Below are positions 270 through 64,000 of a DNA stretch of 64,000 nt, piece by piece (position 1 is the stretch's first letter; each line of letters starts with the position of its first letter). The notes below the pieces were generated by a model. It was not told the origin of the DNA. It searched no databases and saw nothing but the letters and a program-made list of their open reading frames with translations. The DNA comes from Fistulifera solaris (taxonomy: Eukaryota). The stretch is taken from positions 620,001 to 684,000 of the forward strand of contig AP026126.1 in assembly GCA_030295235.1 (NCBI GenBank). Reading direction: 5' to 3'. A program made the position numbers and the translations under genes.

Positions 270-1595
270 CTATGATGAACTTTGTTTGCCACCTCCGAGT
301 GGCACGGGCTCGTAAGGATCGTCGGAAAGTTTGTATTCAGTGAGTTTGTCCAGGCACTGAAGAAGCTCCTGATCGTCAGGGGACGTCTTTTTCAATTTGC
401 GAGAACTTACTCGCTTGATGAGCTGGCTTGCTACTTCTGATGGTTGAGCATTCAGCAAAGCCGTCCCTGAGTTTACCTGTGGTGGCTGACTGCCAAACTC
501 GGGTTCGAATTCCAATGCAAAAGCTTGATTTAATTGCTGCTGACCAGGATGTCGCTCAAGAGGAGCCTGATTCAAAGTCGAATTTCGAATCACTCGGAGT
601 TGCATGTCATACTGCGTCGGAGCCCCAAAGATGTTTTGGTTAGCTTCCGGATTGTAATTGAAATGCATATTTGGAAGAGAGTGATGCATTTGATCGCGAA
701 AAGGTGTCGTTGATGCGTTCATATCGTAGCGCATATCAGGAAGGGAGTTGAAATTCGACGAGCTGTCACCTTCAAACATTAGCTGGAATGGACGTTGGTT
801 ACCCACAAAAGAAGAGGCGTCAGCTAAAAGTTGGTCAGAAACACTGAAGCTTCGGTTGCCAAAAGCATTCAATGTGTGTAATTCAGCAGGTGAAGGACCC
901 AAAGGCGGTAATGCGGAGTTCGAATGAAAGCTTCCGGGAACAGTGAATGCTGGTGTTATGCTTGAATTCGACTGATTCGTCAACTGCAGTGATCGTGGAA
1001 AGGGAAGCAAACTCTGTTGTGAATCCATTGCATAGTTCTGCGAGAAAATTCCCGTGGAGAGCTCTATTCGTGGACGCCTGTCGTTTTCAGAAAAAGCGTA
1101 CATCATTTGGGATCTGTCGGAGAATTTCATTACTTCTTTTCTGCGTTTTTTCTTGGAAACATTACTCGATTTATATCTCTCATGTAGCGCATCACGAAAC
1201 GCTTGCGATGTCTTTTCTCTCGCTAAAAAGTCGCCTACTTCGTACCATCTTCCAGAATCATCTTGCTTCACAAAGCCTCCACCGGGGCTTGCGCGGCGTA
1301 CGTCGGCAACAACTCGATTAAGAACGGCGGACTTGTCGAGCTTAGTCTTGGCCCTCGAATATTCGTCGAGGACCTTTTCAACCCTGGTTTTAAATAGCTC
1401 ATTCCCTGCATGACTGTAACATTTCTTGCCCCGACCACAAACAACATCTTGAATGCTTGGTTGAAATTCCTCCGCTAGAAAGTTCAAAGTTGATCCTGAT
1501 CGCTGTTTCATTGATACGAGAGAGTTCCGGCTTTGCCCATCGTGACTTCCTGCCTCACTCGCAACTGACGAATCTCCTGGCTCCGATCGCTGCAT
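270..1595 (-). CDS. DUF6824-domain protein (diatom-expanded putative transcription regulator)
   Basis: Intact 441-aa ORF with DVVCGRGKKCYSHAGNELF...PGGGFVKQDDSGRWYEVGDFLAREKTSQAFRD, followed by a basic NLS-like KKKRRK. Confidence 0.85.
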   Translation of the reverse strand: MQRSEPGDSSVASEAGSHDGQSRNSLVSMKQRSGSTLNFLAEEFQPSIQDVVCGRGKKCYSHAGNELFKTRVEKVLDEYSRAKTKLDKSAVLNRVVADVRRASPGGGFVKQDDSGRWYEVGDFLAREKTSQAFRDALHERYKSSNVSKKKRRKEVMKFSDRSQMMYAFSENDRRPRIELSTGIFSQNYAMDSQQSLLPFPRSLQLTNQSNSSITPAFTVPGSFHSNSALPPLGPSPAELHTLNAFGNRSFSVSDQLLADASSFVGNQRPFQLMFEGDSSSNFNSLPDMRYDMNASTTPFRDQMHHSLPNMHFNYNPEANQNIFGAPTQYDMQLRVIRNSTLNQAPLERHPGQQQLNQAFALEFEPEFGSQPPQVNSGTALLNAQPSEVASQLIKRVSSRKLKKTSPDDQELLQCLDKLTEYKLSDDPYEPVPLGGGKQSSS

Positions 1596-3304
1596 GTTTT
1601 CAAAACTATTTGTGGGTGTTTGGTATGAAATTATTATTTGTGAGATTACTTGTTGGTAAGTTAATGAATTGATGTGTGATGAGAGAAATATCAGTGCGAA
1701 GATGTAATCGAATGCAGTTTGTCGTTCACCACAAGGCGTCCGCCACCTTTTTCTAGAGTTTCTGAAAGTCGGCTGTCGGGTCCCAAATTTACTGGGATAG
1801 GCAGTCCCGGTCCCATCCCAGTAAGTACAGTCTATAACTTTCTCTTACGACTTTCCCAATAATTTCTGGCCTAAATCTGTGAATGACGACGGTACGGAGT
1901 ATCGAATCAACATAGAGAAAAATAACCAGTCAACCGTCGGTACTCGACTAGATCAAGGGGCATATGTATAGGTTGCCTTACGCCTCCCTACTTTTTTGGG
2001 CTGATCTTCTCCGAGACCTTAGATAAATTGGGAGCTTTGAGTTTTCGATGTTTAAGTTCCGAGTTCGTTGAAGTTTCGCATGGTGTGGCTTGATGTATGA
2101 GCTAATTTGTAGGGCTTAGGTGTGATTGTTCGTGATTCACAAATCATAACTCAATGCTCGGCCATTTTTCTAGGGACCTAAAAATTGATGAAGTTGTCTT
2201 TGGTCTTTCTTCCTGTAACCGTAAAAGCTCGTCGGGCAAGTTGGAACACTTAGAACAATCTGGGTTTTTAGCTGGAACGTCCGAGCCACAGAAAGGAGTA
2301 GAGTAACTCCGAAACGACTGAAGAATGACACCTTTTCTGCTTCAGGAAATGACTGATGACTAAAATGATTCATGATTCAGGACTCAGGACTCACGACAGA
2401 ATATTTCAGAGAACGCAAAACGCAATGGTACTAGTCCCACTAGATTCTAGAGAGAACTAGTAGCTACTAACGAAAATACGATAATAGTATCTCTAATTCA
2501 TCATTTGGAATTGTCGCTAACCACAGAGATTAGAGATTTATGATCCATGACTCACTTGTTCCTAATGAATGTACTCGAGACTTGCGGCTCCCGGATTTCC
2601 TTTGTGATTTTGATTTTAAACTCTACTTTTGGATCTTCCTCGAATCTGTCGGCACTTTAGATGCGTTCTCCCAAAGTATTAGCGTGACTATATTAACTCC
2701 TCGGAGTATGAGAGTCAAAGTTTCGGATAGTGATTGCGGGTTGTGGTTGTTGGCCCTTGGGCTAGGGTCAGGAGTGACTTGTAAGTTTGGCCTGGATATG
2801 ACGAATGACGAGTGATTAGTGACCATTGTGCTTGATGCCGACCTTGTAGTAGGTAATTTTTTCATTTGGGCGTTGGGCGTGGAGTGTAGGGTTCCGTTTG
2901 ACGATGATTCAGTATTTGATTTAGCTTCTAATAATTCCTGATGAGATGATTCAAGATTCGAGATCGATATAAACACAGTCTCCCTAACCCTTAACGCCGA
3001 ATTCCGAAGTCGACATTCGATGCACCATATTGACGATTGAAGGGTGCCGCTAGCTAAAAATATCACGGCGTGGCCTCGCCGTTTCCTTATTTACTCCGCA
3101 ATTTTTTTTCTTGGTTGGTTGACGGTGACACGCAGCACGCAGCACGCTGGCACCAGAACCAGGAAGATGCGGGAAATGTCACACCACGTTACATGACATT
3201 GAAAAACAGTACAATTCCGTTTCATTATCGGTTTCGCTAAATTTATTTAGGCTTATATCTAATGCTTTAATTAAAAACGCTGGCGTGCGCGTCACAAAGA
3301 TATA

Positions 3305-12466: not shown

Positions 12467-15034
12467 ATGTCTGATCCATGGAAAGAACAAAATCAAAGAG
12501 AATACGCTTTTACGAACAGCTTGGTGCTCCGTCGTTGCTTTTTCGAAATGGAAACCACAGTAACGCCCATGTCGACTTTGTGAGCGATGACTTTGGTCCG
12601 TCCGTGATCGAGGATTTTTGGGAAGAACGAGAGCGACGTTCACGAGCTCAAGCTTGTCTTTATTACAAAATTGAGCCGCCTAAGCTGAAATTGGACAAAA
12701 AGCTAAATCGAAAGTGATTGAGAAACAACGAAAACGAAAGAAAGCACACCGACACATGAGTTTCTGGATGAAAGAGGGCTCGGAACATCTAACATTCGAC
12801 AAGCCGTACACTTTGAAAGAAGTCAATCGTTTCAAAACTAAACTATCCGCAGCGCAACGATTTGAGTCTGCTTACTTGCGTTCGCACTTGATCGCCTACA
12901 AGCCGTCTACAAGTCGGGGCATTCGTCGACCCATGGTAGAGTTTGCAACATTTATGGCGACACTACGTCGCGATCATGGCGATCCAAACTACATGGCTCC
13001 GTTTCCCAAAGAGGAAGATTACCAGTTGATGAATATTAAAGAATTGAAAAGAGGAAAACATCGACGTCTGTACTCACATCCTTTTGGAGACAATCATCGC
13101 AATCGACCGTCACTCTATGGAAACTGCTTGGTTTGTTTCCATTGTGTTTGTTCGCGCTGCGATGGACAACAAGATCCGACAATTTGCCTTCTTCATCCAG
13201 TAGGAGAAGAATGCGATCAGGTGCGTTTGTCGTTTATTTCCTTACCCCATGGACCACAGAGAGAAAACGTAGCGGAAACAACGGAAAAAGGACCTGACAT
13301 GCAGCTAGAGCTCGGTGAATCGATCCGTCAAGTTCGACAATGTGGCAGTGAAACGTTCATGGCGCGTACAGAGTTATTCTGTGTCTTCTTTCGTGTGAGC
13401 TTGGACGAACAGGAAACACAAGGTAACTCGGTATGCGGTAGTTGCTACAAGCTTTCCTTACTGCACAAAGTCGACCTTCGCTCCCTCTCGACGTTCGCTC
13501 CCTCCTATATCCCTGCCAGCATATCATCCCATCCCAAATATGGTTTAAATTTCTCAAAGCCGAGGGGTGCTATTCTGTCTACGTGTCAGAAAACGGGTGA
13601 TCGTGTAACGGTGCACCTAGTTCAATGCGATGATCAAGAAATCCCCGTTACAAAGCATCGATTCAACAATCTGCAGGATATTTCTTATATTGAATTCACA
13701 ATGAACCACCCAATGGTTCTCTGGTCTGCTGCTCGGTCCCACGTTCATCCGATTACGAAAGTCAGTATTGATTCTCAAGATCATCAGCTGGGTTTCGGCA
13801 CCGGCCTTTTTGTCTAGATGGACGATCGCAACAAGCTATCTTTCAGTGGAGTCCCAGTCGGGAAGAATTTGTTGCGGAAGGCGTGCATGGCTTATCTGGT
13901 ATCCATGTCGATGAGAAAACGCCCCATTCTCTTTGGGCCTCATCATTTTCTGCGGGAAAAGTCTGGGAGATTGATTCGAGAATGCCTTCTACGCCTGTAA
14001 CAATATGGTCACTGGCAAATGCCTGTAATGGTTTGGGCCCTGTTTTACCACCAACAGGTCTATATGGAGCCGGTCATTTGTTCTCGCGACCAATCGTCAG
14101 CAGCTTTCATGAGAATCAGAAACAACCGCAATTCCAGCCTTTTTTAAGCGTAAGCCAAGACCCTGGCGCGTTTTCTCTAAATGTTTATCAGCGACCTTTC
14201 ACGAGACCACGCTTCGCAACACGTCCTGTTGAATGTACACCCGACCCTAATCTCGCTCGAATGAAAGGATTGAGTGTCGCTTCTAGTTCGATTTTCTCAC
14301 TACCCGATAGATCTGACAAGGTGTTTGTGACTGGTTTAGTTTCATTTGACGTGTCGCCGACAAGTTTACTTACCGTTGCAGATCTTGTGCGTATCGGCTA
14401 TGCAGATGAGAACGAGGTTGATGCTTTTTGTGCCGTAGTTATGAACAATCAAGGAGATTTGCACTTGTATACGGTAATGGACGGTCGAGAGAGGGAATGT
14501 TCATCGGGAATGAAGCCTGACTCTCCCGTCGGAGGGGGTTTCATTGTGTTGCCACAGCAACTAGATGCCGTGAATCAGAGTGATAGCGCGGCCTCGCATA
14601 CTCTTGATGCTCGGCTCGGTAACGTTTCTCCAAATCCAGTTAGTGCTTTCGCATTACCGACAATAAATCATGATATTCGTTCACTAGCCAAATCATGCGA
14701 GAAATTAGGACCGCATTCTGTTCCGTCACAAGAATTCATTGGAGCGGAAGAGCAAGAGCCGCACGGCCAACTAGTTTGCGAGACTGAGAACATGCTTTCC
14801 TCATTTGTCGTTGTCGATCAATCGAAACAATCTTCGGCTCTGAAATTACCACCCCAATCAATTGGTGACGCAAACTCGCAGATGAAAAGCATGGAGGAAG
14901 ATGTTTTTCTTCCGTTTCGATTGAAAGACTTCGATGAAAGGGATGCACGATTAAGATCGGACATGAGCTTTGAGGCGCTTGAAAAAGTCTCCGACGTGCT
15001 ACGAAATTGGGGTGATTACGAAGGTAATGACTGA
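12467..15034 (+). CDS. Large hypothetical protein, possibly TAF1C/Rrn6-like beta-propeller
   Basis: Contiguous ORFs 12478-12717, 12714-13817 and 13883-15034 linked by apparent frameshifts. WEIDSRMPSTPVTIWS weakly recalls the TAF1C DxRxPxxPxxxW motif. Confidence 0.55.
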
Positions 15035-29071: not shown

Positions 29072-32000
29072 ATGAGAAAGGAGAAGATCTGAAAGACTCG
29101 GAAGATACGCAGAAAATACCCGCATCAACCAAAGATGACGATTTTTGCAACTCAATTGATGCTCTCGTGGATTCGGATGCGGAGGGCGCTGATATTTTCG
29201 ACGACGAAGACGAGGATGAAGTCGCGTCGGCAACTCATACCGGAAGCATTCATAGTAAGACGAGTAGGACGAATGACTCGGTTACGGCCGAAACCAATTA
29301 CACAGAGGTCATTCAGAATTTGGCAACATCCCCATTTTTATCGCCTTTAGCGGCTAGGGGAGACCTCAGTACGGGTTCTTTCGATCTCGATATCAATTTA
29401 TCTTCGCGGCACTCAAAGCAGTCCATATCGTCAAAACTTTCATCAAAGGATTCGGTAGTACATGGACTATCAGAACGTTTCGACGAGCTATCAGTAAAAA
29501 GCGACAGACACAACAAAGACGATGACATTGAGTCGAAAACATCCCAAAATGATGATAGAGGTAGCGACAGTGCCGAAGATTATTCCGACGATGAAGACGA
29601 AGGACAGGACGGATACAAACCTGGCGGATACCATCCTGTTAAAGTTGGCGAAGTGTATAATCAAAGGTGCGTGCGTTTGTAAGTTGTTAAGCACATAATA
29701 TACATGATCTTTCTCAAACACAGTCTTCCAGATATGTCATTATAAAGAAGCTGGGCTGGGGGCACTTTTCCACTGTATGGATGGTGAAAGATCGAAAGGC
29801 TTTGAAATCGGGTAATAGTGCTCCTTTCTACGCCTTAAAAGTACAGAAATCAGCAGAGCATTACACTGAAGCAGCAGTTGATGAAGTAGAATTATTAAAC
29901 TGCATAGCAACAGAGCGAAAGAAAGCCGAATTGAAATTTGCGAATGGGGCATCGAAAGAAGCGGCGATCGCTGTAGATCGATCTCGTTTTGTGGCCACGT
30001 TGCACGATTCTTTCTTTCATTCTGGGCCAAACGGTCGGCACATGTGTATGGTCTTCTCCATGCTCGGTTGCAATTTATTGACTGTGATCAAAGCTTACAA
30101 TTATCGTGGTATCCCTGTCGATGCCGTTAAAGTAATGATCCGTGGGGTGTGTAAAGGACTTGATTTTCTGCATCGTAAATGTCAGGTCATCCACACCGAT
30201 TTGAAGCCGGAGAACGTCCTGCTGCAATTTCCACATCAGATTGGTAAAGATGAAGATTTCGCTTTTGGAGTCACGGCGCTTGCTATGGAATATTCGCACG
30301 ATTCGGAAAGGAACGCCATTAGCACGTCTGTTGAGGACTTAGAGGCAGCTTTAAACGTTACGACCCTTACACCAGAAGAGCGCAAAAAGTTGAAAAAACG
30401 ATTGAAAAGGAAGCGACAAAAAGAGAGAAAACAGGCATTTAACAGCAACGACAATTCAGATGACGAGGATGAGGAGAGTGTCTCGTCTACTATTCAAGAC
30501 TTGGCAGATGAAATGTCCGGCAATGCTACCTACGCATTATCGGACAAAGAATTCAGCAAAGCAAACGGAAAGTGCACCGAAAAGGAAGCCGATCTTAACC
30601 AGTCACACAGTCATGTTAAACGAAGAATCGAACGCAATCGTTTTCTCGCGACTAACTTCGGGCCGCAACGGTTAGTTGCTGAATCTGACTTGACGAAGAT
30701 CGCAAAGAACGTATATTTGCCAGCAAAGCAAATAGCCATGAGCTACAAACGTTTTTCGAAGAAGCTGGTGAATCTGGAATTGCCAGAATAAGCATTGTTT
30801 TAAGACAATTTTCGAGCGACGGAGATCTTTGCAACGCACTGAACTACAGCCTAGGTGGTATTAGTTTTGATCGCGTGGGACAGGAGAGAGAGTGGCCAAT
30901 TAAGCTTTCACTTAGTGCTTCGGAATCGATGGACTTGACCTCGCATTCATACATCAAACTTTCACAATCATCACCCCTGGATAGTGCCGATAGTCAATAT
31001 TTCGCAGAGCTGGTAAATCTTATCGGAGAGAATTTTGATATCAATGAAGAATCGATTGCATCTGAGCTACCGGATAGTACTACTGGAGAACTGCCCGGTG
31101 CTGTCGAACCATCTCCATTCGTGATTCTGTCGTTGCAGTGTCCAGCTTCGTCGACAATGGTCGGGTTAAGCTTTCTGGAATCCAGGCTTCCCGGAGTGGC
31201 GTTTCTAACATATATGCGAGATGACGGAGTTCCAAATCTTGACAAGCTCGTTTTTGGGCATCACAACATGAAAGTATGCGACCATCCTTTGGCCATGCGA
31301 ATCAATGACACTCTGTCTCAACCCTTATGTAACAAAGGAAGTACCATCTTCGGTTTTGACATGCGTTTGATCCCCAGTCTCAAAGCTTCTCCAGTTTTTG
31401 ATGATTCCGGGCTTTCATTTGCTCTGACTGCAGAAAATGAAGAACTACTTGGAATGTGGGGGTCAGGAATCCGTTGGAGCAGCGCGTCCAATCTTTCTGT
31501 GGTATTGATCTGTCAAGTCAACTTATTAATTTAGTGGGTCCAGAAGGTGTACGAGAGTCCCGTAAATTATCCCAGGACACTGATGCTGGATTCCAGGAAG
31601 GCGAAAAGAAATCGCCTGCTGCCGAGATTCAGACCGCTCCTTCATCGCTTGATAATTCAACGAATTCTCCGACACCGTCCATAACCCACGTTCCAGACTT
31701 GAAGGATGTTGAAATGCTTACGTCTTGTCGGGCAGTAATCGTTGATCTTGGGAACGCATGTTGGACCTACCGTCATTTTAGTGAAGACATTCAAACTAGG
31801 CAGTACCGTGCACCTGAGGTGCTGATTGGAAGCAAGTATGATACTTCCGCCGATATTTGGTCACTTGGCTGTATGGTGTTTGAGTTATTGACTGGCGATC
31901 TCCTCTTCGATCCTCGGGCTGGTGAAGACTATGACCGTGACGAGGATCATTTGGCCATGTTCCAGGAGCTTCTTGGTCAAATGCCAAGAAGACTTGCTTT

Positions 32001-40962: not shown

Positions 40963-43294
40963 CTAGTTTGAATCCTTGTAATCGGTTCGGAAGTGATCAG
41001 CAGCGTTCGGAGGTAGGTGCGCTAAGTGATCCAAGTCCACGGCACTGCACTGATCAGAATGGGACCAATGGTAGGTCGTAGCAAAGACAAGAAAATGTAA
41101 CACAAGAACATAAAAGAACAGAGCGGTTCGCATCTCGCGGGTAGCTTGTGTTGTAATAAGGACGTTCTTTGAGTACATTTTGCTGTGCAATAGATCAACG
41201 TCTGTCCCCCAACAAATGACGTACCTAGGACCGATTTAGCGACAACAAACACTGCTCGCTCCATTGGAGGCATTTCGTTTAGCTTGCGTTGACGCTCCGC
41301 TCTACTAAATTGGCGGAAAGGATCAACAGAAGCCTCATAGCGTTGCTCTAATGCTTCCAGATCCATATCGTGATCAGCCTTAAAGCCACGGTTGTTTTTG
41401 CTGGAAAAATTTTGCAGATAGCGAACTTTTTCGTAAAGCTTGGTGTTATCCGCCTTGAGAGAATCAGAGGCGGAAACTTGTGCTTGCAGTTCACGCTTGA
41501 ATGAGTCTCGTTCAGCTTCGAGAGCTTCGCAACGCGCTCTTAGTCGATCTCGCTGCGCCATGACGATCGTCGCAACCGAATGGTCATCGTCCGACTGTTC
41601 CGTCGACTTCTTCGAGACAGAAGGCTCTTTTGCAACAACTTTAGAACTGGGTCGTTCGGCTGATGGCTCCAAAACACTTTTTAGAATTTCAAAGTTCTCA
41701 GTTGGAGGGACCAGGAGTGCGGGACTAGCCTGTGGTGGCGCACACGCTGCAATAGCTCTGGCAAGATCAGCTTCCAGAGAAGCCAACAACCTCTCTTGGT
41801 CCTTGTTCGTATTCTCCATCTCTGTCAGTTGGGCTTGTAAATTCGTACATTCCTTTTCCAGCTCCTCTCGGTTCACACGCTCCGTCACAAGCTCTGACTC
41901 TGCTTTCTTCAGCTTCGACACTAACACCGATTCTAGGTCTGTAACATCATCCTGGTTACCAACTATTTCAGGGTTCTGATCTGTGTCGGCGTTGTACTCT
42001 AAGCGCTTCAAAATACGAAGCTCTCGTCTCATCGTTTCGACAAGTTGTGGACTCGGCGCCGAAGCCAGATCCTGTTGCAGAGAGTCCACTTTCAGTTGCA
42101 TTTGTCTTTTCTCTCGTTCGTAGGAATCCATTTTTGTCCTGGAAGTTCGTCTTTCTTCCGTAATTTCATCATCCTTTTGCGTAGTTCCTCTCGAAGTAAA
42201 TTAGCTGTTTGGGCTAGTTCGGCGACCTGTGACAATAGTTTAGAGCCATCCAACAATGTTTCGATGTTAGGAGATGGAGATGATAACTTACCTCGGCTTC
42301 GTATGCGTCACGCTCCAAGATGAGTTCCTCAACTTGATTTCCGCCAGAAAAGTGCGCATCGCTACTTTTCCCTTGCAGCGCAGCCACTTTTAGCTGCAAT
42401 TCATCTTTTTCCCGCGTTGTGATTTGAACGACTTCTCTGAGACGTTCCAGATCGTCAGTGAAGATTTGCTTCTGTGCCTCCCATGCAGCCTCCCTTTGCG
42501 AAACACCTTCGTCTGCATCAAGCAGATGAGCCTGGGTTGCTTCACGTCCAGCGCGTTCTGCTTTCAACTCAAGTTCCAACTTTTGCACTTTTCGTGCCAT
42601 TGAAGCCTCGCGCTCTAAGGCTTCTGCGGCTCTGCGTCCTTCCGTATCAATCAACTCCTCTCGTGCTTTGGCTAGTTGCTCTTGTAATTGTTCCTCAGCT
42701 GCCGCTTGTAATTCAACAATCTTCGCTTCAAGTTTACGGATGGTAATATCTTGGTTCTTCAGCGACCGGAATTCTACTTCGTATTCCGCTACTTCTCGGC
42801 GTAGCTCCATCAGTTCATCCCGTTCTTGCGTCGATATGCCGCTACTTGGCTGTGGAGCCTTACGAGTCTGCACTTCTTCTGCGCAAGAGATAAGTATGCT
42901 GGCCGGATCGGGAAGCTCTTGAAGAGTCTGAGCAAGCGAGGTGTAAGCGCTTTCTATCGATTTGCACCGACGCGTAAGATTGTCAATTTCTTCTTTGTAC
43001 GAATTGACGATACGTTTCGCATCACTTGTGACGTTGTCGACAGCTTGAATAGCTGTCGCCACATTTTCTGGCGTGGCCTCTTCGGTCAAGGGAAGACCCT
43101 GTCTGCGACAAAGTTTTGATGGATTTTTTGAATTGTTTTGTAACATCGGCCAAGTTCTTGCGAGCTGCTAGCGACTGTTCACGGGCCTCAATGCTCGCCT
43201 GAAGCGTCGGCTCGATTTGTGACTTCTGTGATAGGTTCCAATCTTTCCATTTCTCCGCGGCTTCGGAGATTTCTTGCAAAGGCGTTGTTTGCAT
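40963..43294 (-). CDS. CASP: Golgin CASP (COY1/CUX1-CASP homolog)
   Basis: RKNLA..TKQFKK, YKEEIDNLTRRCK, LKNQDITIRKLE, QRDRLRAR..LE, DNTKLYEKVRYLQ, YEASVDPF and TM FFYVLVLHFLVF. Introns 42227-42291 and 41145-41224. Confidence 0.9.
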
Positions 43295-43674: not shown

Positions 43675-46600
43675 TTATGCAGACGGAACCATATCACGAA
43701 GCATCGCATTTACCACAGCTTTCCTTGTCTGTTGGGAGCTTACGAGCGCAAACAGCGCCGCACGACTCTCACTTCGGAAATAAAGGGCTTGTCTTCCAGG
43801 ATTGTTTCCTTGGTCATCTGATACCGCGAATATACACAATATATGATGACCGGAGAGAGTCGAAAAGGCCCATGCGTTGGCAGCAAATCCGCCGGGGATG
43901 GCCTCCCCGGGCCAATCCAGCTTGGACATGGTAGCTATCTTTTTCGAAATAGGGTCATTCATTTCTTCTTGTGGGCGACTTTTTTCTTGGTCCTTTCGTT
44001 CAAGTTTCACAGGAGGTAACTGATGTGGCATCCGAAACCAGAGAAACCGAAAAGCTTCATAGTCACCACATCGATCCACAAAAAAAACTAACCGGCAAGG
44101 TTGCAAACCAGCCATTGGCGGCAGTTGAAAAGCATCTCCTACAACCACAACTTTTGTAAATTTTAGGGAGTCTGCTTGCGAGCCACTTTCACTGGCAATA
44201 AGAAAATCATCTTCGCCGCTTTTACTTCCCGTTTCGATGACGCTTTCAGAGGAAACAATAGCACCCGTCTTTAAATCCAAGCTCACTCTTACGAGGCCGC
44301 TCTCTTCGGCTTCGATATTCATCTTTGGGTAACTTACTGATGGTCGCAATTCCAATGGGCTAGAAGATGAATATTCTTGATCCAATACAATGGCCCACGT
44401 AAGCGAATCCCCAGCTTTTACCTCCTGGCGGTAGACAGTTGATGTTGAAAATGGAAGCGGTGCCTCGGTCATGAGTTCGCGGAAAGACATGTTCAACGAT
44501 TCAGCAAAGTGCTTCCCAATTGTATCATCGGCTGGTTCGCACAACGTCGCACCAACTTCCAAGCAAATCCCTTCCGTGAAATCAATCGGCGTAATGTTGA
44601 AAATGCGGATAAAAACGCCGATCCGAAATTCGTCTTCGCCGTCAAGTCGTAAATGTCGTTGGGGCGTAGCAGCCATTGTTATTTGAGTAGCATCCGATGC
44701 AGCAGAGCAAGATTTGACCCAAACATCAGACGCTGCCAGCGGATTCCCAAATGTTCCTAATTGACGGCCGTCGCGCGAGGCATTTACAGGTGGTATTGTC
44801 AGGCGCATCGGAGAGATCGCACGAGCGTACACATTCGAATCGACGGTAGTAGAGGAATATATTGCGTGCCGGGTTCGAGAAATAACAATCTGGCGGCAAA
44901 GCTGCATCCAAAAGCCTCGTTGAAAAGTATCGATAGAAGCAGGCGCTGGTTTGGTGGAAGAAATAAGAGGCTTTATTTTTGTTTTGACTGGCTGGATGAC
45001 AAATTCAGACAAAGGAAACTCGGTACCTCCTTCTGGACCGTTTTCATAGTGACTTTGGATCCGTCTGATTGCCGCTTCGCTGACAGGAAGAATGATTGTG
45101 GTGATTATCTCTTCGGAAAGCACGTCATCTGCCTTTGCTTGTAAACTCGCGACAGCAGCTGATATTAGTTGCTTGGCATCTGACCCACCGAAACGTCGTC
45201 TCCACCCCACAGCGGTTAAGGCGATGTTTTCAATGCATGCAACACACATTTTGACTGTCTCTCCTGCTAATTTTTTCACCGAATCTCTCTTTGGCCGTCC
45301 GTCGGCGTTGAGAGTGGGAACGTGTGATGCATAAATAATTTTGATAATGCGTTGTGGACTGAGGGCAGTAATGATATCCTTGCCACTTTTTACATTGAGA
45401 TTTGTTGTACCAGTACCAGCGACGGCCTCAAAATCACTCTGAGCAGCTGAAACCTCACACTGTACCCAGTGATCGGCCGCCAAAGACAACAAGAAGAGTC
45501 GCATGTGGTGCGAAGGAACTCCATGGTGCAGCTCTTGTGCCACAAGGTCGTCCATCAGTTTTGTTGTTGCGATAGGGGGCCTTTATCACTTGTCTCAAAT
45601 TTTGACAGTAGAGCAGCTGAATCCATCATACGGTCCCAGAGTATATGCGGGGGACAAGCGTTCGTAGTCAGCTTCAATGAAACAGATGCAGAAGGTTCTA
45701 ACAATCCTACGCCGTGTAAGAAATCTTGAAGGAGCTGCACGTAAGCTGTCGATCCTGCAGCAGTCAGCGTAACGTCCTCATCGAGATAAGCTAATCTGGG
45801 ACCCGACAAAACAGAAGGCACAAATGCTCTGAGTATACTCCAACTTAGATGAAGCCATTTTTCTACCGCTCCACTGTTCGTCGGCGCAAGAGTTCCATCT
45901 GGAGCAAGCCTGAAGCTACGGCCGATATCGAGAGCAACCGTAGCCAAAACTAGGAGCATCTCATCTTTAATGGGTGACAAAACCCCCTCGTCATAGTCTA
46001 TATTTTGTAGAGCAGCGGATAGGAAAGTCTCGAAATGATCCGACGTCGCTGAAGCATCGTGATCATCCACAAAAAAGCTGAGGGCCATTTCAGTAAATAG
46101 GCCAACGCGAGTTGGAAGGCGGTATTCTTTCCAGCCTTTCCAAGAAATCAGAAGTCCTGCCGTAGAAGCAGATGATGATATCGACATAGACGCCGGTAGG
46201 TTGACCAATTTCTGCACCAAAAACACCAATCGCGGGGTTCGTTCCGCTAGTGGCAGGGCGCGACAAGCGATGACAGCAGCTGCCAGTCCAGCTAGTTTCT
46301 GCTCGAGCGGCAATTCTGTCTCCATCAGATCTTCGCACAGAACGGCAGCGCTATATTGAATAATGATAGCTGCCCATGGCGTATGAGGGCAGGCATTCGC
46401 TAGTCGCAAACCAGAGAGTGCCGCCGCCCGCGTAGCCGCACCGTTTGCACTCGTTTGCAATAGAGGCAGAACCAGCGCGTTGACCGCCGTGTCTACCAAA
46501 CTCCTCGCATCCACTTCCGACCATCGTTTCGAAAAGACTGCACGGTCCATGAGACTCAATGTGGCCGGTGTGGTACGCACTATATGAATGAGACAAGCGG

Positions 46601-47441
46601 TTACGCAAGGCAAGGCGGCAGCAACGAAGGCGGTATCAGAGTATTGCGCGATTCGATCCAGAATCTGAAATAACCTCGGGGACAAAACATTTTCTTGAAC
46701 TCTGATTTGTAGTTCAGCCATGGGTATTGACGGGTCTTCGTCAACTACTGCCCGGAGTGTCGGCGCGTAGGGTGAGGAGCGTCCAAAAGCAATGCTGTGT
46801 ATCTGATGAAGCAGTTCGTCGTGAACAACTGTCCCAGGAATTGTAGATGATGACAATATGAGTGTTCCGATGGCTTCTATTGCCGAAGCAGAGACGCCGT
46901 CATCCTCATCGTCCAACACTATAGTAGCGAGGGCGACTGTCACATCCGTGCCAATTTCATCTTCCAGCCGATTGACTGCTGGATCACGTACGGAATACAA
47001 GAGCGGCGAATGCCTTATTCTGGCGTACGCAGAACGAGCAACGATTGCTAAGGTCTCACATGCTAATATGCGACATCGACGGTCTTTATGACTTTGCATG
47101 CATTCCTGAAGCGCGGCCATGCATGTGGAAGTTGATTTAACGTACGATGGGTCATGGAAGAGATCCGAAGAGGCATTGTTTGTCGTATCCTGAAATAGTG
47201 TATTCGACCCGTGGCCAGCAAATTGACAAAGCTGCAGGCAAGCCTTTGCGACGGAAGCGTATGCGGATTGATCATCTCTGAGGGGAGTTAGGCATGACGA
47301 TGGATCTGTTGTTCGCGCAGGAAATTCCAGCTCTGGCTGTATAAATTCACTCTCGTCTTGGTTCCCTGTACCGGTTCCAGTATTTCGATTCTCATCCTTC
47401 AGTTGATTGGAAGCAAGGGGAGTTGCAACTTGAGCACTCAT
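43675..47441 (-). CDS. Large HEAT-repeat protein with a coat-adaptor appendage-like C-terminus (TPLATE/beta-COP-like)
   Basis: ORFs 45555-47441 and 43675-45555 abut at a frameshift. Helical HEAT-like N-terminus (DDEDDGVSASAIEAIG); C-terminal SAASD, IRIFNIT, AFQLPPMAGLQP and FRFLWFRMP. Confidence 0.6.
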
Positions 47442-48039
47442 CGTTTATTCAGCATTTATTTCTTTGGCAGCTTGTTGTTGCTTTTGTTGCAAATAAGAAA
47501 GGTCCGCGTCGCGTGTCGCGTGTGTGCGATATGATTATTTTTCGATCATCGATCATCGGCCAACTTGCGGACTCTGAGTACCGCGTAAGGGGGCAAAAAA
47601 TGAGGATACTATAGTCCAACATGTAGTCTATCTTCCATCAAGACTGGATTTCAGTCATGAAACTATTGTTATTTTACTCTTTTGTTGCTCGCATCCGCCA
47701 TGACCATTATAAGCACATGTCTTAATTGTTTGTGCTACTTCTGCAAAGCGTTTACCGTTCTGAAATAAACTGAAGTAGACAAATAAAACACGCCTGATAG
47801 GGGTGTCGAACTTTCAAAAATTAATGTTAAATTTTACATTTATGTCGGAGTGGTAGTTTCGGGCTCCATGCTGTTTTGTACTGTGTTCGGGTTCTGATCG
47901 AGTGTCACTTTTTCGTAAAACAAATGCGAACACGGAACAAAGAAAAGGTTGGCACACTTGTTCTACGAATTCAAACTATTTACGAGAATGACACCATCAT
48001 TTATTTCGTAACAATCAGACAATAGCAAATATTAACAAA

Positions 48040-55900: not shown

Positions 55901-56876
55901 AGGTAAGATCTCCTCCTGGTCTTCGCTGTTTGAGGAAACAAGAGAATACTCGTAAATTTCGCCATGGCTCGTTCCAAGTAGTATCCGCTTGCTAGACCCT
56001 TCAGTTCCCCGTTCATTATCCCAAGCGACTGCCGTCACCCAGGAGCCTGTTGTTAGACCCTTTTGAATTTTTGGACTGAGGGGTTTCATCTCGACGTCCT
56101 GCCACAGAACTGGCAGAAATACCGGTAAGAACGTCTTTTGTCAAAAGACTACCATCTGCGTTTCGGCCAAAGCCCGGCAATTTGCTGACCTGTCGTTGAC
56201 TACTGTGAAGATAATAAGCTTCTCCGTTGATTGCCGAAAGAAAGGTGTGACTCGCCGTGGGATCCACAAACACGTGCGCAATGCGGCTATTTCCTTCCAC
56301 GGGTGGCGGTAACGCGACCCACTGATCCGCCATACCTCCCCGACGAACGTTCCAACGGCTCACAAGGCGCAATGTCGGTTGACCCGGGCACTCCAAAGCG
56401 GCAACAATCCATCCATTGGCGGCAGTCACACAGCCGGGTCGCGGCGGGCGTATCGGGCGCGAAGACCCAGCATCCACCATCTCATCATCTGACTTTTCGG
56501 AAGCAGCTGATGTATTGAGCACGCGACTCATGAATCCAGATAAACCGTAGCCGCCGTCGCTACTGCGTCCATCTCCCGTCGCAGTAGCGGCTTGTGCGGT
56601 ATCGCTCTGCGCCGAAGCATTTGCTTTTCCCGTGCTGAAAGGAGTATTTTTGGTTATCCCAAGCTGCTGGCCGGCTTGTTTGCTCGCCTTGAGGAGTCGA
56701 TTGTAATTCTGCAACGACAAAGTACTTGGAATAGGCCATTCTACGTGGCGGGCGGCCCAAATGGGTGGCTCGCCCGGCGGAGCAGCTCGACGAGGACGCC
56801 CTGACATGACGCGGTGCTGTCGTAAAGAGGCCGACGACGTGCGAGTAGTTTCGTCGAAGGGATTTGTACTACTCAT
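52949..56876 (-). CDS. VPS18: Vacuolar protein sorting 18 (Pep3), HOPS/CORVET subunit
   Basis: HVFVDPTASH, VTAVAW, ILLGT..GEIYE, LALTPHH, EDRDVW, RKRLWLMIAK, LSIEDVLPFLPDF..IDEIK..IC.AL..Y and IAAECP motifs. Introns 54434-54496 and 53475-53534; several frameshifts. Confidence 0.92.
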
Positions 56877-57764
56877 GGTTCCTCTTCTGGTATACGCAAT
56901 ATAATTAGCTTTTTTGCTGGGCTGCAGTGTAGAAAATAAACTAGTTGGTTACTTTTGAAATGCACAGATCACTTTATATCACTTCGGTTATTGCGATGTG
57001 ATTGTTTGTGTTGTTGTTGCGTTTCAATCTTTGCTTTACTTTGTATTGTGCAGTAAGGTTACCAAAGCAAGAACCGGTAACTGGTACAGTACGGTACTGT
57101 GGGAGCTTCGTCTTACCGTTAATCGAATCGTGACAGAAATGCAGTCAGTCGTGGTAAAAGGGAGTCTACATTTTACTCTATTGTTATTTGAGAAGTCAAG
57201 TTTCCAAGGCTTCTAGACCTGCTTACATTTATTTTTAGATACTAAACGTAACTACCGTTCATAGAAATTAGAAATAAGCACATCTCCATCGACAGCAATG
57301 ATAAGGAGTACAGCTTTTGTCTACGGACAACTCCACGACGGCAATTGCTCACTCTGTTTTTCGGAAAGCGTGGTTACTGTCGTACAACTCATTTGCTGTC
57401 ATCTGGAAATAGTTGAACATAGTTATAGACAGCCGCTTCATCAATCCTTCTTGCATTTTCAGTCTTTTACTAGGTGACACTAATTGAAGGGAGATGCATT
57501 GTAGTCATGAAGGAACTTTGACGCCATTCAGTCGGCCGTGTCCTCTACGAAAGCATTTCAAATGATCAAATAATGTACAAGCATAAAAATCTGCAATTGC
57601 GTTAATGTAGTCTGATTATAGAAAGACTCAAAATTCATCAACGAATCAAGTCACTTTTAGCCAGGTATTAACAACGGAAGGTGGTGGGACCGATCTGAAA
57701 CTGGAACGAAGGAAAAGCTGGAACCGTTCTATATTATCCACAATTAATTGGCGTAAGAAATATA

Positions 57765-59521: not shown

Positions 59522-62500
59522 CTACCTGAAATACACAATGGCTCTCTTCTCTTCGAATTCCAGCTTCTTCTCGAGCAATTCTTTCCGTCTTTGGTCTAAT
59601 TTCTCTCGCATGGTGCGTTTCATCTCATCGCCGTTTGTGTCAAGGATTGCTCCTTTCGCTGGTGGTGCAGATTCACGTTTGGCGTTCGATAAGTTGTTGC
59701 TGGCAAGCTCAGTCTTATTGGATGCCAGAGATGCAGTGTCTGCCAGATGCTGCGAAGATATCTGATCCGTGTTTTCTGCCTCTGGATTATCATTCACGGA
59801 AGGTTGAAAAGCAACATCCTTCTCGTTGGCAGCGGCGTCACTTGCACTATCAAGTTGTTGATGGTAAGCTCGAGACATTTCTCTGATTTCTGCATGCCGT
59901 TCTCCCCCCAATCCATCCAAAACGATCTCAACGTTTTTGGTAGGTCCATCTTTCATCGAAGTGTCCGATGTTCCCGCGAGACTCTCGTCTATTGAAAAAA
60001 GAGACGACCCAGAATAGGCGGAAGTTTTTCGTGGCTGAAGATCAGCATTGGGATTGGTATCGTTATATGGCAAACTTTCTAAATCGTCAGAGAGTCGACT
60101 CAAAACTGGTCCCTCCAGACCCGATATTCGTGTCGTGCCGATGTGCTTTACGTTGAATCTGCCGCCACTGGCGCTTGCCGCAGTTGCGTCTGTCCCTTGC
60201 CTTCCACCATTCTTTTTGACCTTGTATGCTTGAATCATGATTGGCACGAAAATAAGAAGCTGCATCGACATACTGATGGCAAAAACAAGAAATACCTGAA
60301 GAAAATATCGAGCCGTGGGGTTATCACTGTCAATCAGAAAAAGCATAGGAAACCCGACGGCAATTAGCTGAAACCAACTGAACAGTCCAACGCCCATGTT
60401 TTTAGCTTCGCTGAATTCGTCGCTAATATTTCGAGCTTGATAGGCCTGCTTGCAAGCAACGAACAATGCCACAACATTCACAGCGCCCACTAGCATACTC
60501 ATCGTGAAGGAAATGGGTGTGCGACTGCCATCGTCGCTACTCTGACAGCTTCCGTATGTATTCCACGGTTCCCCTGCGATCTCGAGCCGTACAAATCGCA
60601 AGGGATCAGCGAGAGTCCAGACAAGCATGAATGTAAAATTCAGTGTGAATAACAAAGCAAATGGAGCCATGACGTCTACCTCCCTGACTCTCATTCGGCG
60701 CGAAGATGCCCCAAAAAGCTTATTGATGCGCCAAAGCTTGGAGAATAAAGCTGACATAGCGACCGTGAAACCCATACTTAAGAGCCATGGCGATGACATA
60801 CAAGCGATGTCGCAACCACGCTGCGAGCTTGTCCCATCATCAATACTCAGGGGGATGATCGCAAGCGCCATAACCAGCATCCCGGTCGAAATCGTCATGA
60901 GAAAGAAAGGCTGAAGAGTCTTCACAATCCGCAGGTTGCGGTAGTACCATACCCATCCGGATAGGAAAAGGGATGCGATGACAGCAACAGCTGCGAGAGT
61001 AAAACCAAGATACTTGATTGGCCCCAGATGATTGAAATTTTCCACCGGAGAAACACGCATTAAAACCTCAAATGTTGCATCCTGGCCGGCACAGCCGGGG
61101 AAACTGCCACCATTGAGCACAGCGAATGCTACAGTACCTTGGGCAGTTCCAGGCTCGAGTTCTGAAGTAGCAGCCTGAAAGGAATACTGAATTCGTCCGC
61201 CTGAGGGAACGGAGATCGGTTCGCCTTCCACAACTTGAATAGTGTCGCCTGATTCGAACTTAGCAGTAGAATAATTGAGCCAAGCTGGTTTTGACTTGGG
61301 AACAACCATCACCTGATCAAGCTCGCTATTGACCATTGAAATTTGGCCATCAATCTCATCTTGTGAACCTTGAAGCCCATTGAACTCCAATGCTTCGCTA
61401 AGAAATGAAACAGCAATTCTCTCGGGGCACTTTTCACATATTGATAGCGTTGGTTGCCAGAAAGTACCTGGAAGACAGTCGTCTGCAGTCTGGATGAAAT
61501 TAAGGGACATCATCGCGGAAGTATCGTTCACAATTCGATCACCAATCACAGCTTCGTATGGGGCATCTAGTTCCTGTAGATAGGCTGTAACAATATCCTG
61601 TACCAATATAGCATCAGAGGTCTTACCAGGTTCCTCTCCTGGGGTAACAAGGTCATCCACCAGAAATTCAGGGAAGGGATCGAAACCACCGCACAAATAG
61701 CTATCGGTAGAAAATTTGTAGAGTTTCAGTTGCTCGAGCGGTGCGTATTCTTCTGCCTCAGGGTCCCACACTTCGATAGCCACAAGTCTCTCGCCTTCTC
61801 TTTCCTTGTTGAAAACAACTTTCATGCCGGATACCTGTAAAAGTCTATCGCCATCATTTGTGTTTTCTCCTTCAAAAGTGGCCACATTGATGGAGTAATT
61901 AAACATCTTAAATACCGAAATCCCATTCATAACGCCAGTGCATGGGTTATTTGGAAACGGCAAGGCAGCCCAGATATCGGAGACACGTACATCGCCAGCT
62001 TCCCACCCCGATCCACGATATCCTCCGCTACTTGAAATAGAAAAGTCGGCTTTTGACCACCACCGAAGCGCATCGGTAAACAAGTTTCCCAATTCACATT
62101 CACCGGCTTTACAGCGTCGATAGTCTCCATCGCGACTGGCAGGCATAAAGGTAGCCTGGCCAACTACTGGATCATTCGCGGCTGCCTGGTTCGCTTGCTC
62201 CCTTAAAGCGGCAATATTTGACGCGTACTCTTCATCTTTCAGAGTACCATTTAAGGTGTCCAAGCCATGTCCAATAAACTCGACACCGGTCACGCTTTTC
62301 CCATCTGGGCTGAGCGTAAGTGTGTGATGATAGTATTCATCCGAATTGAGATCGACGCTCGTAACCCATACGCTATCAACTTTTTGAGGAATCTCGAAAG
62401 CTGGGTCGTTTCCATCGACATCAATAAAAAAGCGCAGGGGGGTTTGTGTGGTTGGTGACGGCTGTCTTAAATACTTCGTATTTTTCAAAACTATCAGCGA

Positions 62501-63161
62501 AAACAACAACAGGAATCCAACATCGGGTGTCACTATGGTCAGTTCGGTTCAAGAACGTATCGTAAATGCCGTAAATTTCACCAGAGCAACCGTTCTGAAC
62601 ATTGATACGCGCAATATAATCAAGTACACCCAGAGTTGACTCGATTTGATTGAAAGTCATTGGCTGGCCATCATTGATATTGACGAGAACGGCCAAGCGA
62701 GTTTCGTCGTCAAAAAAGACCGGTACTGTGTATCGCGACCAACTTATGCTGGGAGGTATTGCTACATTTGTGAGCAAGTAAGGAAAGTCTTCACTTTGCA
62801 ACCCCGACAAGTCTCGCTGAGAAATGTCAAAGTCCCCATTGTGTTGTGTCAAAAGACTCGGAGGGGCCGTGAAGACACGAAAACCGAAAATGTCTTGAAA
62901 GACTAATCGATTGACATTCCATACCAGTGGATGCATCTGCACAAAGGGACTGTCTCTATCCGCAAAAGGTAGAACGAGCGAGGGCTCCCCTTTTCCGTAG
63001 TATCGCAAGAAAGCCGTAACAGCAGCCACTCCGCCTAAGCAAGATTCGTCCTGTGCATCCGCACAATCCGTCAGCTCTCCGCTTAACAAAGGCGCCCCCG
63101 AAAGAACGAAATGTATCGTTTTGTTCACTATCGTTGCATTCATGTTGTCTTGTTCGCTCAT
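59522..63161 (-). CDS. Class C (GABA-B-like, 7tm_3) GPCR with a 5'-nucleotidase-like ectodomain
   Basis: 7TM: VKTLQPFFL, CMSSPWLLSMGF, LFSKLWRINKLF, WTLADPL, AYQARNISDEFSE, LIFVP. Nucleotidase C-domain: ECELGNLFTDA, GGYRG, LPFPN, LQVSGM. One extra base in A-run 62426-62431 joins ORF 62421-63296; start uncertain. Confidence 0.88.
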
Positions 63162-64000
63162 GGTGATGAGTATAAAAAGTTCGTTTTTGATGAGAATGTC
63201 TACATAAAGTAGAAAGCGAAACGAAAGCGTAAAGCGTAACACACCCTCGAATCTCCGATGCAGATACCACCGGGGGCCCGGGGGCAAAGAAAGCACGATA
63301 GGGGCGAGGATGGCCTTTTCAAGAATTCTTGGTCCTTTTTACTTTCTGCCTCGGACCTCGGCCGTCGGAGTTCGGAGTTACCAGGTATTTACAGACAGTT
63401 CGAGATGGCGCATGTCGCTCGTGCGATTGGGCATTGGGATTGGGATTGGGGTTCCTTTTGAAAACAAATAGATCGATACTAAATTATTTTGTTAAGGTTG
63501 AGTTCTCACCTTGAATATCCTTGAATATGAACGTTTAACCGCTCATTAACTGTGTCGACGCAAATGGATAATATACTAGGAATCAAGTTACGTTTCGCTT
63601 TTATTGTACTTGAAGACTGTTGAATTGTTGAATTTCAAGAGGACCACAATTATGACCCTTTATCTTAAATCCTTTATCGCTCGTAAACTTAGAGTATGAC
63701 TGCGCTGTAGTTACGGTTACCAAAGGAGTGGTTACGGAGTATGATTTTTAGATTGTAATCACATGTTACATGTGACAGGCTAAACTAGCTATGGAGGTTA
63801 GCAGTTAGAGAGGGATTAAAATCTCTGGTCAATTGGGATTATCAGATGCCTTTTACAAAGCTAGCAATGCAGCCTTCAACTGACAAAACTAGCTTGAAAG
63901 TCGCCTTATCCATGTGTTAAACACGGACTAGACCCGAAGGCAATTACGCGGATGAAGTTGACTTTGTTAAGGAAGGAAATGGCTGGATTTTTTAGTCGAC

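Follow-up and report, generated by a model that had tools for sequence, protein, structure and literature searches.

Class C G protein-coupled receptors (GPCRs) typically carry a Venus flytrap domain, but GPR156 and GPR158 are without one. In diatoms, the legend of Figure 4 in Port et al. 2013 (PMC3727952) places a '5-nucleotide-C' box beside 7tm_3 in putative class C GPCRs; in the accessible part of that paper a ligand-binding domain is credited to PBP1-bearing receptors only, and no Cys-rich domain is reported. Likewise, the accessible part of a recent preprint (bioRxiv 10.1101/2025.04.15.649019) describes 5_nucleotid_C and Ephrin_rec-like domains on class C 'Glutamate' receptors of choanoflagellates and other holozoans. 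Neither source, in its accessible text, mentions an N-lobe, a ligand or catalytic residues that have been lost, and no functional study of nucleotidase-domain class C GPCRs was found in the literature searched, which covered diatoms and pseudoenzyme receptor ectodomains. Here we present a gene of this kind in Fistulifera solaris, lying on the minus strand at 59522..63161 of a stretch of 64,000 nucleotides (contig AP026126.1 of assembly GCA_030295235.1, positions 620,001 to 684,000 of the forward strand), which is called the window below and to which all coordinates refer. The receptors boxed in 2013 very probably belong to the same family. On the whole, it is reasonably probable in our view that the gene encodes an intact class C receptor in which a catalytically dead 5'-nucleotidase clamshell is a candidate sensor of nucleotide-type molecules. 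The original prediction, made from the DNA letters alone, allowed for this architecture being characterised already. The domain pair is in print for diatoms (2013) and holozoans (2025), although neither source, in its accessible part, handles the dead enzyme or its function. New in the present work are the recognition of a complete pseudo-enzyme with both its lobes, the account of which residues it has lost and which it has kept, and an immunoglobulin-like (Ig-like) stalk.

From Pfam matches and structure models, the order along the protein is N-lobe, helix, C-lobe, Cys-rich module, Ig-like stalk, seven-transmembrane domain (7TM) and tail. The features are given below, with residue numbers of P0346, the public protein of this gene; P0002 is a relative that was modelled, and P0001 is the homoeolog.

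59522..63161, minus strand: whole coding region, no intron needed, stop codon at 59522-59524
62426..62431, minus strand: run of six T with one surplus base, from the sequence, 3/3 contigs and P0346; the homoeolog P0001 is continuous here
62234..63122, minus strand: N-lobe with metallophosphatase-like fold, about residues 8-303 of P0346, from the P0002 model and alignment
62180..62233, minus strand: long helix joining the lobes, about residues 304-321 (helix 315-332 in P0002, offset about 11)
61523..62179, minus strand: C-lobe, 5'-nucleotidase C-terminal domain, with a Pfam match at 61670-62167
61418..61522, minus strand: Cys-rich module, C556, C569 and C572 being invariant (56/56)
61028..61417, minus strand: Ig-like beta-sandwich of ASH/PapD-like/MSP type, the stalk before transmembrane helix 1 (TM1), from a model of this segment itself and its structural match
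60242..61021, minus strand: class C seven-helix domain (Pfam 7tm_3), nearest to GABA-B subunits
59525..60241, minus strand: cytoplasmic tail, mostly of low confidence or disordered in the model, with a terminal amphipathic helix at 59525-59620

The feature positions given originally are correct within about 50 bases.

In the window as given, the coding region is split between two overlapping minus-strand open reading frames (ORFs) in different frames, 62421..63338 (305 codons, first ATG at 63161) and 59522..62548 (1008 codons). The frame change sits within the T6 run 62426-62431, which is A6 on the plus strand, and with five T instead of six the frame runs on continuously (..NPPALF-IDVDGND..). 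Three Logan contigs of the same organism cross the run, two of them from run X1 and one from X2, and all three have one base fewer. Apart from this base, one X1 contig agrees with the window throughout; the remaining two represent a copy about 90% identical. This second copy among the reads would be explained by the allodiploidy of F. solaris, a species with two subgenomes. The four public runs compared with the locus are of uncertain kind, a 24-kb contig in X1 suggesting DNA, and they are evidence on the DNA sequence, not on transcription, the 5' end or splicing. The public protein P0346 (GAX09961.1, Fistulifera solaris, 1206 residues) gives the same picture: all of its 1206 codons are found in the window once base 62426 is skipped, with its start at the second ATG (63143), the first ATG (63161) giving 1212 residues. 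The homoeolog (P0001/P0345, FisN_11Hh051), with an identity of 95% in the N-terminal part and 89% elsewhere, likewise reads through the junction without a break. Because contigs, public protein and homoeolog are all continuous here, the surplus T is an assembly error or a variant and the gene is whole, as had been claimed in predicting one protein of about 1200 residues after deletion of a homopolymer base near 62430. Among 40 listed differences between the window and the homoeolog, 36 fall on third codon positions (114 further differences lie beyond those listed), and therefore both copies are under purifying selection. The fusion itself does not depend on the repair of the frame, because Pfam finds both 5_nucleotid_C and 7tm_3 within the 1008-codon ORF alone.

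In that ORF, 5_nucleotid_C is matched at residues 128-293 (61670-62167; E 3.9e-24, 86 bits against a cut-off of 23.6) and 7tm_3 at residues 510-769 (60242-61021; E 3.1e-32, 112.7 bits with the cut-off at 33.5, aligned to positions 6-250 of a profile 251 long). The N-terminal 246 residues have no Pfam match of any kind; Metallophos (PF00149) is detected neither there at E up to 1 nor in any of 16 relatives scanned at E up to 0.1, and real enzymes do match this family. The fold was approached through an AlphaFold2 model of P0002, which is 73% identical to the window protein, built with 55 aligned sequences and having a predicted local distance difference test score (pLDDT) above 90 across nearly the entire ectodomain and 7TM. 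In Foldseek, this model hits whole 5'-nucleotidases best, namely CD73, Thermus, NadN and UshA (E about 1e-21, about 590 columns), and VIA-align superposes its residues 18-551 on residues 27-549 of CD73, that is, the entire mature enzyme (Z 27.1, root mean square deviation (rmsd) 3.3, 460 residues). The family profiles agree: hhalign of the 54-member receptor family against 64 enzymes gives a probability of 99.5% and E 1.8e-22 over 417 columns, which begin at the first N-lobe helix and reach to where the C-lobe ends. The 64 diverse enzymes came from an exhaustive representative search, and hhalign against UshA alone covered the C-lobe only. The Protein Atlas label is '5'-nucleotidase-like'. The two-lobed nucleotidase fold proposed earlier is thus recovered over its full length in the model of the relative; for the N-terminal domain, called metallophosphatase-like, it is the fold that holds (by model and hhalign) and the Pfam match that is absent. 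Among CD73 entries, the closed ones (TMt 0.63-0.69) resemble the model more than the open ones do (0.42-0.47), which may be taken as a weak hint at best about the conformation.

The enzymatic centre is where receptors and enzymes part. In the UshA and CD73 structures, D41, H43, D84, N116, H217 and H252 (UshA numbering) are the dimetal ligands and H117-D120 is the catalytic pair. Each of these eight positions is conserved in 61-64 of the 64 enzymes. At the expected positions of D41 and H43, the receptors have Ala (42/54) and Leu (50/54), and in the eight columns past strand 1 Asp occurs in at most 3/54 receptors, with no His among the residues listed; strand 1 lies outside the hhalign alignment, and the VIA match begins at the first residue of mature CD73. 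At the positions of N116, H117 and D120, the receptors show no Asn, His or Asp, either in the hhalign register or in the register set by the strand end of the model. The strand ending in H217 in the enzymes ends in Ala/Ser followed by Asp in the receptors (Asp or Glu in 50/54), and the H252 position is Glu or Asp in 39/54. The metal-bridging D84 is different, its equivalent being Asp in 51/54 receptors (D62 in the window, 62958-62960). Judged from these alignments, in which the registers of motifs I, III and IV were set partly by eye or taken from hhalign, seven of the eight catalytic and metal positions are replaced family-wide. The column counts in 54 receptors and 64 enzymes agree with the loss of the catalytic centre claimed at the outset, with two amendments. 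Not all metal motifs are gone, since the bridging Asp of 'PFAD' is kept; and the reading of GNHEFD as APPSLL is right about the loss of N, H and D in either register but uncertain as to the register, for which hhalign gives GFRVFT. With neither the His and Asn metal ligands nor the catalytic His-Asp pair left, the domain is predicted to carry out no hydrolysis of the known kind. In addition, new acidic residues stand in the window where the two His ligands stood, D217 (62493-62495) and D243 (62414-62416). With one Asp kept and two carboxylates gained, the old metal site is therefore remodelled into an acidic patch, not simply erased. D62, D217 and D243 occupy the former dimetal site, and a conserved FVQMHP-x-x-W-x-VNR motif follows D62; this cluster may be a new cation- or ligand-binding feature.

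The other half of the enzyme, the binding pocket of the C-lobe, has a different history. In CD73, according to the accessible part of PMC8677862, Phe417 and Phe500 stack on either side of the base of adenosine monophosphate (AMP), Asn390 and Asp506 hold its ribose, and Arg354 and Arg395 its phosphate; the clamp also takes caffeine, riboflavin and 5-iodouracil. The equivalent positions in the window were read from phmmer alignments to CD73 chains, with the CD73 numbering anchored at Phe417-Gly418-Gly419, and the occurrence of residues was counted in the 54 receptors and the 64 enzymes.

62108-62110, minus strand: K345, equivalent to CD73 R354; Lys in 31 and Met in 13 of 54 receptors with no Arg listed, Arg in 50/64 enzymes
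62030-62032, minus strand: S371, equivalent to CD73 N390; Ser, Thr or Asn, variable in receptors and variable in enzymes
62015-62017, minus strand: R376, equivalent to CD73 R395; Arg in 53/54 receptors and 60/64 enzymes
61955-61957, minus strand: F396, equivalent to CD73 F417; Phe in 53/54 receptors and 57/64 enzymes
61697-61699, minus strand: Y482, equivalent to CD73 F500; aromatic in 54/54 receptors and 59/64 enzymes
61679-61681, minus strand: D488, equivalent to CD73 D506; Asp in 26 and Glu in 6 of 54 receptors, Asp in 45/64 enzymes

By these counts, the aromatic clamp and one phosphate Arg are kept at enzyme-like frequency. The GGYR arginine, the LPF phenylalanine, and the aromatic residue and Asp of SYLCGGFD, all of which had been pointed out as kept, correspond to R376, F396, Y482 and D488. 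The wider statement that the base and phosphate contacts remain is true of these four, and the other two of the six CD73 contacts are changed (R354 to K, N390 to S). It is because the clamp is kept while the catalytic residues have decayed that a binding function is argued here, and a non-catalytic clamshell sensor is well supported.

Behind the clamshell, the protein continues as a class C receptor. The 7TM of the window finds GABA-B2 as its best PDB match by sequence (8e-42), with GPR156 and GPR158 also among the PDB matches, and residues 710-984 of the P0002 model match GABA-B in fold (Z 28.4, rmsd 2.5, 266 residues). C781 at the top of TM3 (60800-60802) and C866 in extracellular loop 2 (ECL2; 60545-60547) are invariant (56/56), and the model has the ECL2 hairpin, with strands at 860-878 between TM4 and TM5. 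Neither a Venus flytrap (ANF_receptor/PBP1; no Pfam match in the window protein at E up to 1) nor the rhodopsin-type 7tm_1 is matched, the 7TM matching 7tm_3 only in Pfam; the class C assignment made at first is upheld by both the Pfam match and the GABA-B fold. For the segment before the membrane, 61010-61537, the window sequence itself was folded with 56 sequences (pLDDT 90). Two parts make up the model, a short Cys-rich one in which three cysteines are invariant and an Ig-like sandwich, whose best match is the SPD-2 domain of CEP192 (7ptb_A; Z 13.8, rmsd 2.2, 113 residues), with 2qsv at Z 12.9. The Cys-rich linker and beta-rich domain that had been described are therefore both present. A prediction of a two-copy complex (residues 322-705, covering C-lobe, Cys-rich module and sandwich) has a score of 0.00, which has no bearing either way on dimerisation. 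GABA-B subunits pair via C-terminal coiled coils. The C-terminus of the receptor is a charged amphipathic helix (59525-59620; helix 1162-1191 in P0002), shared only by the closest relatives and ending in ..IVYFR or ..YFK; by analogy it might be a candidate pairing element.

Searching with the ectodomain finds 73 proteins, of which 63 have both 5_nucleotid_C and 7tm_3, from Cylindrotheca, Seminavis, Cyclotella, Skeletonema, Nitzschia and many marine contigs and transcripts. The survey of this architecture in diatoms that had been suggested thus yields at least 63 relatives. A word-based search with the N-terminal part for longer proteins gives 14 matches, all of the same family, and no new architecture. 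Another output is found in Euglena longa, where P0073 and three cluster mates (all transcripts) have the degenerate ectodomain and a Cys-rich module, matching Pfam Ephrin_rec_like in P0073, followed by one TM helix and a class III adenylate/guanylate cyclase. The same ectodomain on a 7TM and on a cyclase is as expected of a portable sensor module.

The comparison with known systems can now be drawn. With the UshA/CD73 family, which also includes NadN, CpdB and the Thermus 5'-nucleotidase, the receptor shares the two-lobed fold, 5_nucleotid_C, the C353/C358-type Cys pair, the GG-x-R arginine, the P-F phenylalanine and the second clamp aromatic. Unlike these enzymes, it has no Metallophos match, lacks the seven catalytic and metal residues and has no visible signal peptide, and its nucleotidase part continues into a Cys-rich module, an Ig-like domain and a 7TM. 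With GABA-B and other class C GPCRs (mGluR, CaSR, GPR156, GPR158) it has in common 7tm_3, the ECL2 hairpin and the TM3/ECL2 cysteines, and with mGluR and CaSR also a Cys-rich module between sensor and 7TM; it differs from them in the nucleotidase fold that replaces the Venus flytrap and in the extra ASH/PapD-like sandwich before TM1. The holozoan class C receptors of 10.1101/2025.04.15.649019 have the same combination of Pfam domains, as far as the accessible text goes, but belong to other supergroups. The Euglena longa cyclases are alike in the degenerate N-lobe (with the kept Asp and the FVQM motif), the C-lobe and the Cys-rich module, and unlike in having one TM helix and a class III cyclase as output instead of a 7TM. 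P2Y, P2X and P2K1/DORN1 share with the receptor only the proposed class of ligand; there is no homology, and its 7TM is 7tm_3, not class A.

In the mechanism we propose, a small ligand outside the cell that combines a flat ring with an anionic group, most likely of nucleotide, nucleoside or nucleotide-sugar type, would bind in the C-lobe pocket. The two lobes would close over it as they do in the enzymes, and their movement would reach the 7TM by way of the Cys-rich module, which is rigid, and the Ig-like stalk, like the closure of the Venus flytrap in mGluR and CaSR. We infer here the binding and identity of a ligand, lobe closure as the signal, and the coupling of the receptor to G proteins. 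The family of origin hydrolyses AMP, other nucleoside monophosphates, uridine diphosphate (UDP) sugars, nicotinamide adenine dinucleotide (NAD) and cyclic nucleotides, and because of this diversity the list of candidate ligands is broad; AMP, adenosine triphosphate (ATP), NAD or a cyclic nucleotide, as first suggested, could be named by pure inference. According to the accessible part of PMC11085791, there is no P2X receptor in any diatom genome surveyed, so that a nucleotide receptor would fill a gap.

Several observations weigh against a nucleotide-sensing receptor of this kind, and they are told here together with the alternatives that they favour. As to the structure, the two-lobe model is that of a relative, the two-lobe part of the window protein not itself being modelled, and the placement of strand 1 and motif I comes only from the VIA range and inspection by eye. 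As to the ligand, in Phaeodactylum tricornutum 36 uM ATP causes a Ca2+ rise in P-limited cells only, and ATP-gamma-S causes none in such cells; the authors regard the ATP effect as sensing of released phosphate (10.1101/2020.05.13.090282, accessible part). These data argue against a direct route from ATP to Ca2+ in that species, which may or may not carry the family, and leave room for other ligands and other second messengers. Moreover, the ribose and second-phosphate contacts (the equivalents of D506, R354 and N390) vary across the family. Such observations are in favour of a sensor for something other than a nucleotide, such as a flavin, a pterin, an aromatic acid or an infochemical of algal or bacterial origin, or else Ca2+, Mg2+ or a cationic group held at D62/D217/D243. 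This alternative is unlikely in our judgement, yet it deserves serious attention: the CD73 clamp accepts caffeine, riboflavin and 5-iodouracil (PMC8677862, accessible part), ribose and phosphate contacts differ between paralogs, acidic residues are conserved at three positions where the metal site used to be (Asp in 51/54, Asp or Glu in 50/54, Glu or Asp in 39/54), and Phaeodactylum lacks a direct ATP-evoked Ca2+ response in the accessible report. What speaks for a nucleotide-type ligand instead is that the best-kept positions are those holding base and phosphate in the enzymes, at enzyme-like frequency, and that nothing positive points to another ligand.

The kept pocket must also be seen against its background, for about 50 of the 215 columns of the C-lobe (about 23%) are at least 90% conserved anyway. 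From such alignment counts, two or three kept pocket residues alone would not be statistically striking, and as an argument they are not compelling. Pocket conservation not far above the C-lobe background is what a scaffold would show, that is, a nucleotidase-like domain used for dimerisation, adhesion or protein contact with no small ligand, the 7TM being constitutive or gated otherwise; class C orphans with non-flytrap ectodomains do exist (GPR156, GPR158). We hold this to be improbable, as the surface clamp residues are kept in 53-54 of 54 receptors after the catalytic decay, and as one module with two outputs, 7TM and cyclase, is typical of ligand sensors.

What most weakens the use of 'ectodomain' is the absent signal peptide. 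None is recognisable in the window protein, which starts a few residues before strand 1, and among the N-termini of 56 relatives that were read, including transcript-derived ORFs marked complete, a signal peptide is seen in one (P0074, a classical one directly before strand 1) and in none of the other 55. No candidate exon for a signal peptide is found in the 840 bases upstream of the gene, and it is therefore unexplained how an N-terminal domain of about 700 residues crosses the membrane. The stretch concerned, in which no signal peptide precedes strand 1 of the N-lobe, is 63087-63122 on the minus strand. The minus-strand ORF 63842-63913 was considered as a 5' exon, being the only ATG ORF of at least 20 residues in 63162-64000, and was rejected, since it is not signal-like and has no in-phase acceptor. 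A domain facing the cytosol or the lumen of an organelle, and sensing an internal nucleotide pool, would be in keeping with the single signal peptide among 56 relatives and with strand 1, which is modelled as a core strand and not as a cleavable peptide. Such an arrangement is nevertheless very unlikely in view of the Cys pairs, the Cys-rich module and the invariant TM3/ECL2 cysteines, which point outside, and of the positive-inside distribution and the P0074 signal peptide. In the 7TM loops, a manual count on the translation gives 17 Lys and Arg predicted inside and 5 outside. The Cys pair aligning with the CRFREC pair of CD73, which forms a disulfide there, is kept in 54/54 receptors, and both lobe Cys pairs and the Cys-rich module are conserved in the family. 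Thus several features of the sequence point to an extracellular N-terminal domain, in the usual class C orientation.

That the protein is a tethered enzyme of altered chemistry, as one metal-binding Asp and two new carboxylates might suggest, or that the frameshift of the window as given is real and the gene broken, is highly improbable, since 7/8 catalytic positions are replaced across the family, the extra base is missing in all crossing contigs and in P0346, and 36/40 of the listed homoeolog differences lie on third positions.

Elsewhere in the window, three more pairs of long ORFs on the same strand abut or overlap with a change of frame, at 12684-15034 (plus strand), 41022-43167 (minus strand) and 43675-47444 (minus strand). 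Homopolymers lie at two of these junctions (T5 near 13806, C5 near 45575), and the pair at 41022-43167 consists of the CASP_C and CUX1_N halves of one golgin-type gene. The three pairs may be further assembly errors in homopolymer length, or short introns. Other Pfam matches are DUF6824 at 270-1844 (minus strand), a protein kinase domain at 29691-30791 (plus strand) and a fragment of a Vps18-type beta-propeller at 56016-56948 (minus strand); 10 of the 17 long window ORFs scanned have no Pfam family at E 1e-5.

Returning to the receptor with the dead nucleotidase clamshell, a pseudo-enzyme in the place of the Venus flytrap has the advantage that its fold shows where to seek the ligand, at three clamp residues and among a defined set of candidate compounds. 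It would illustrate neatly how an enzyme can become part of a receptor, its catalytic half having decayed and its binding half having been retained. The family is large, and its sensor feeds two different outputs in distantly related eukaryotes, which points to a sensing module of general use and not to a curiosity. More tentatively, dead 5'-nucleotidase clamshells could be an old portable extracellular sensor of protists, a third kind beside the Venus flytrap and Cache, and in diatoms, which are without P2X receptors, this expanded family could make up the missing class of receptors for dissolved nucleotides or nucleosides, a possibility that we regard as rather doubtful for the present. If it is true, the module would be wired to a class C 7TM in diatoms and choanoflagellates and to cyclases in euglenids, and its paralogs would be tuned to different nucleotides via those ribose and phosphate contacts that vary. 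Much of the carbon fixed in the ocean is fixed by diatoms, and almost no surface receptor with a known ligand has been described in them; for these organisms, dissolved nucleotides or nucleosides could then act as danger signals from lysed cells, or as cues of organic phosphorus.

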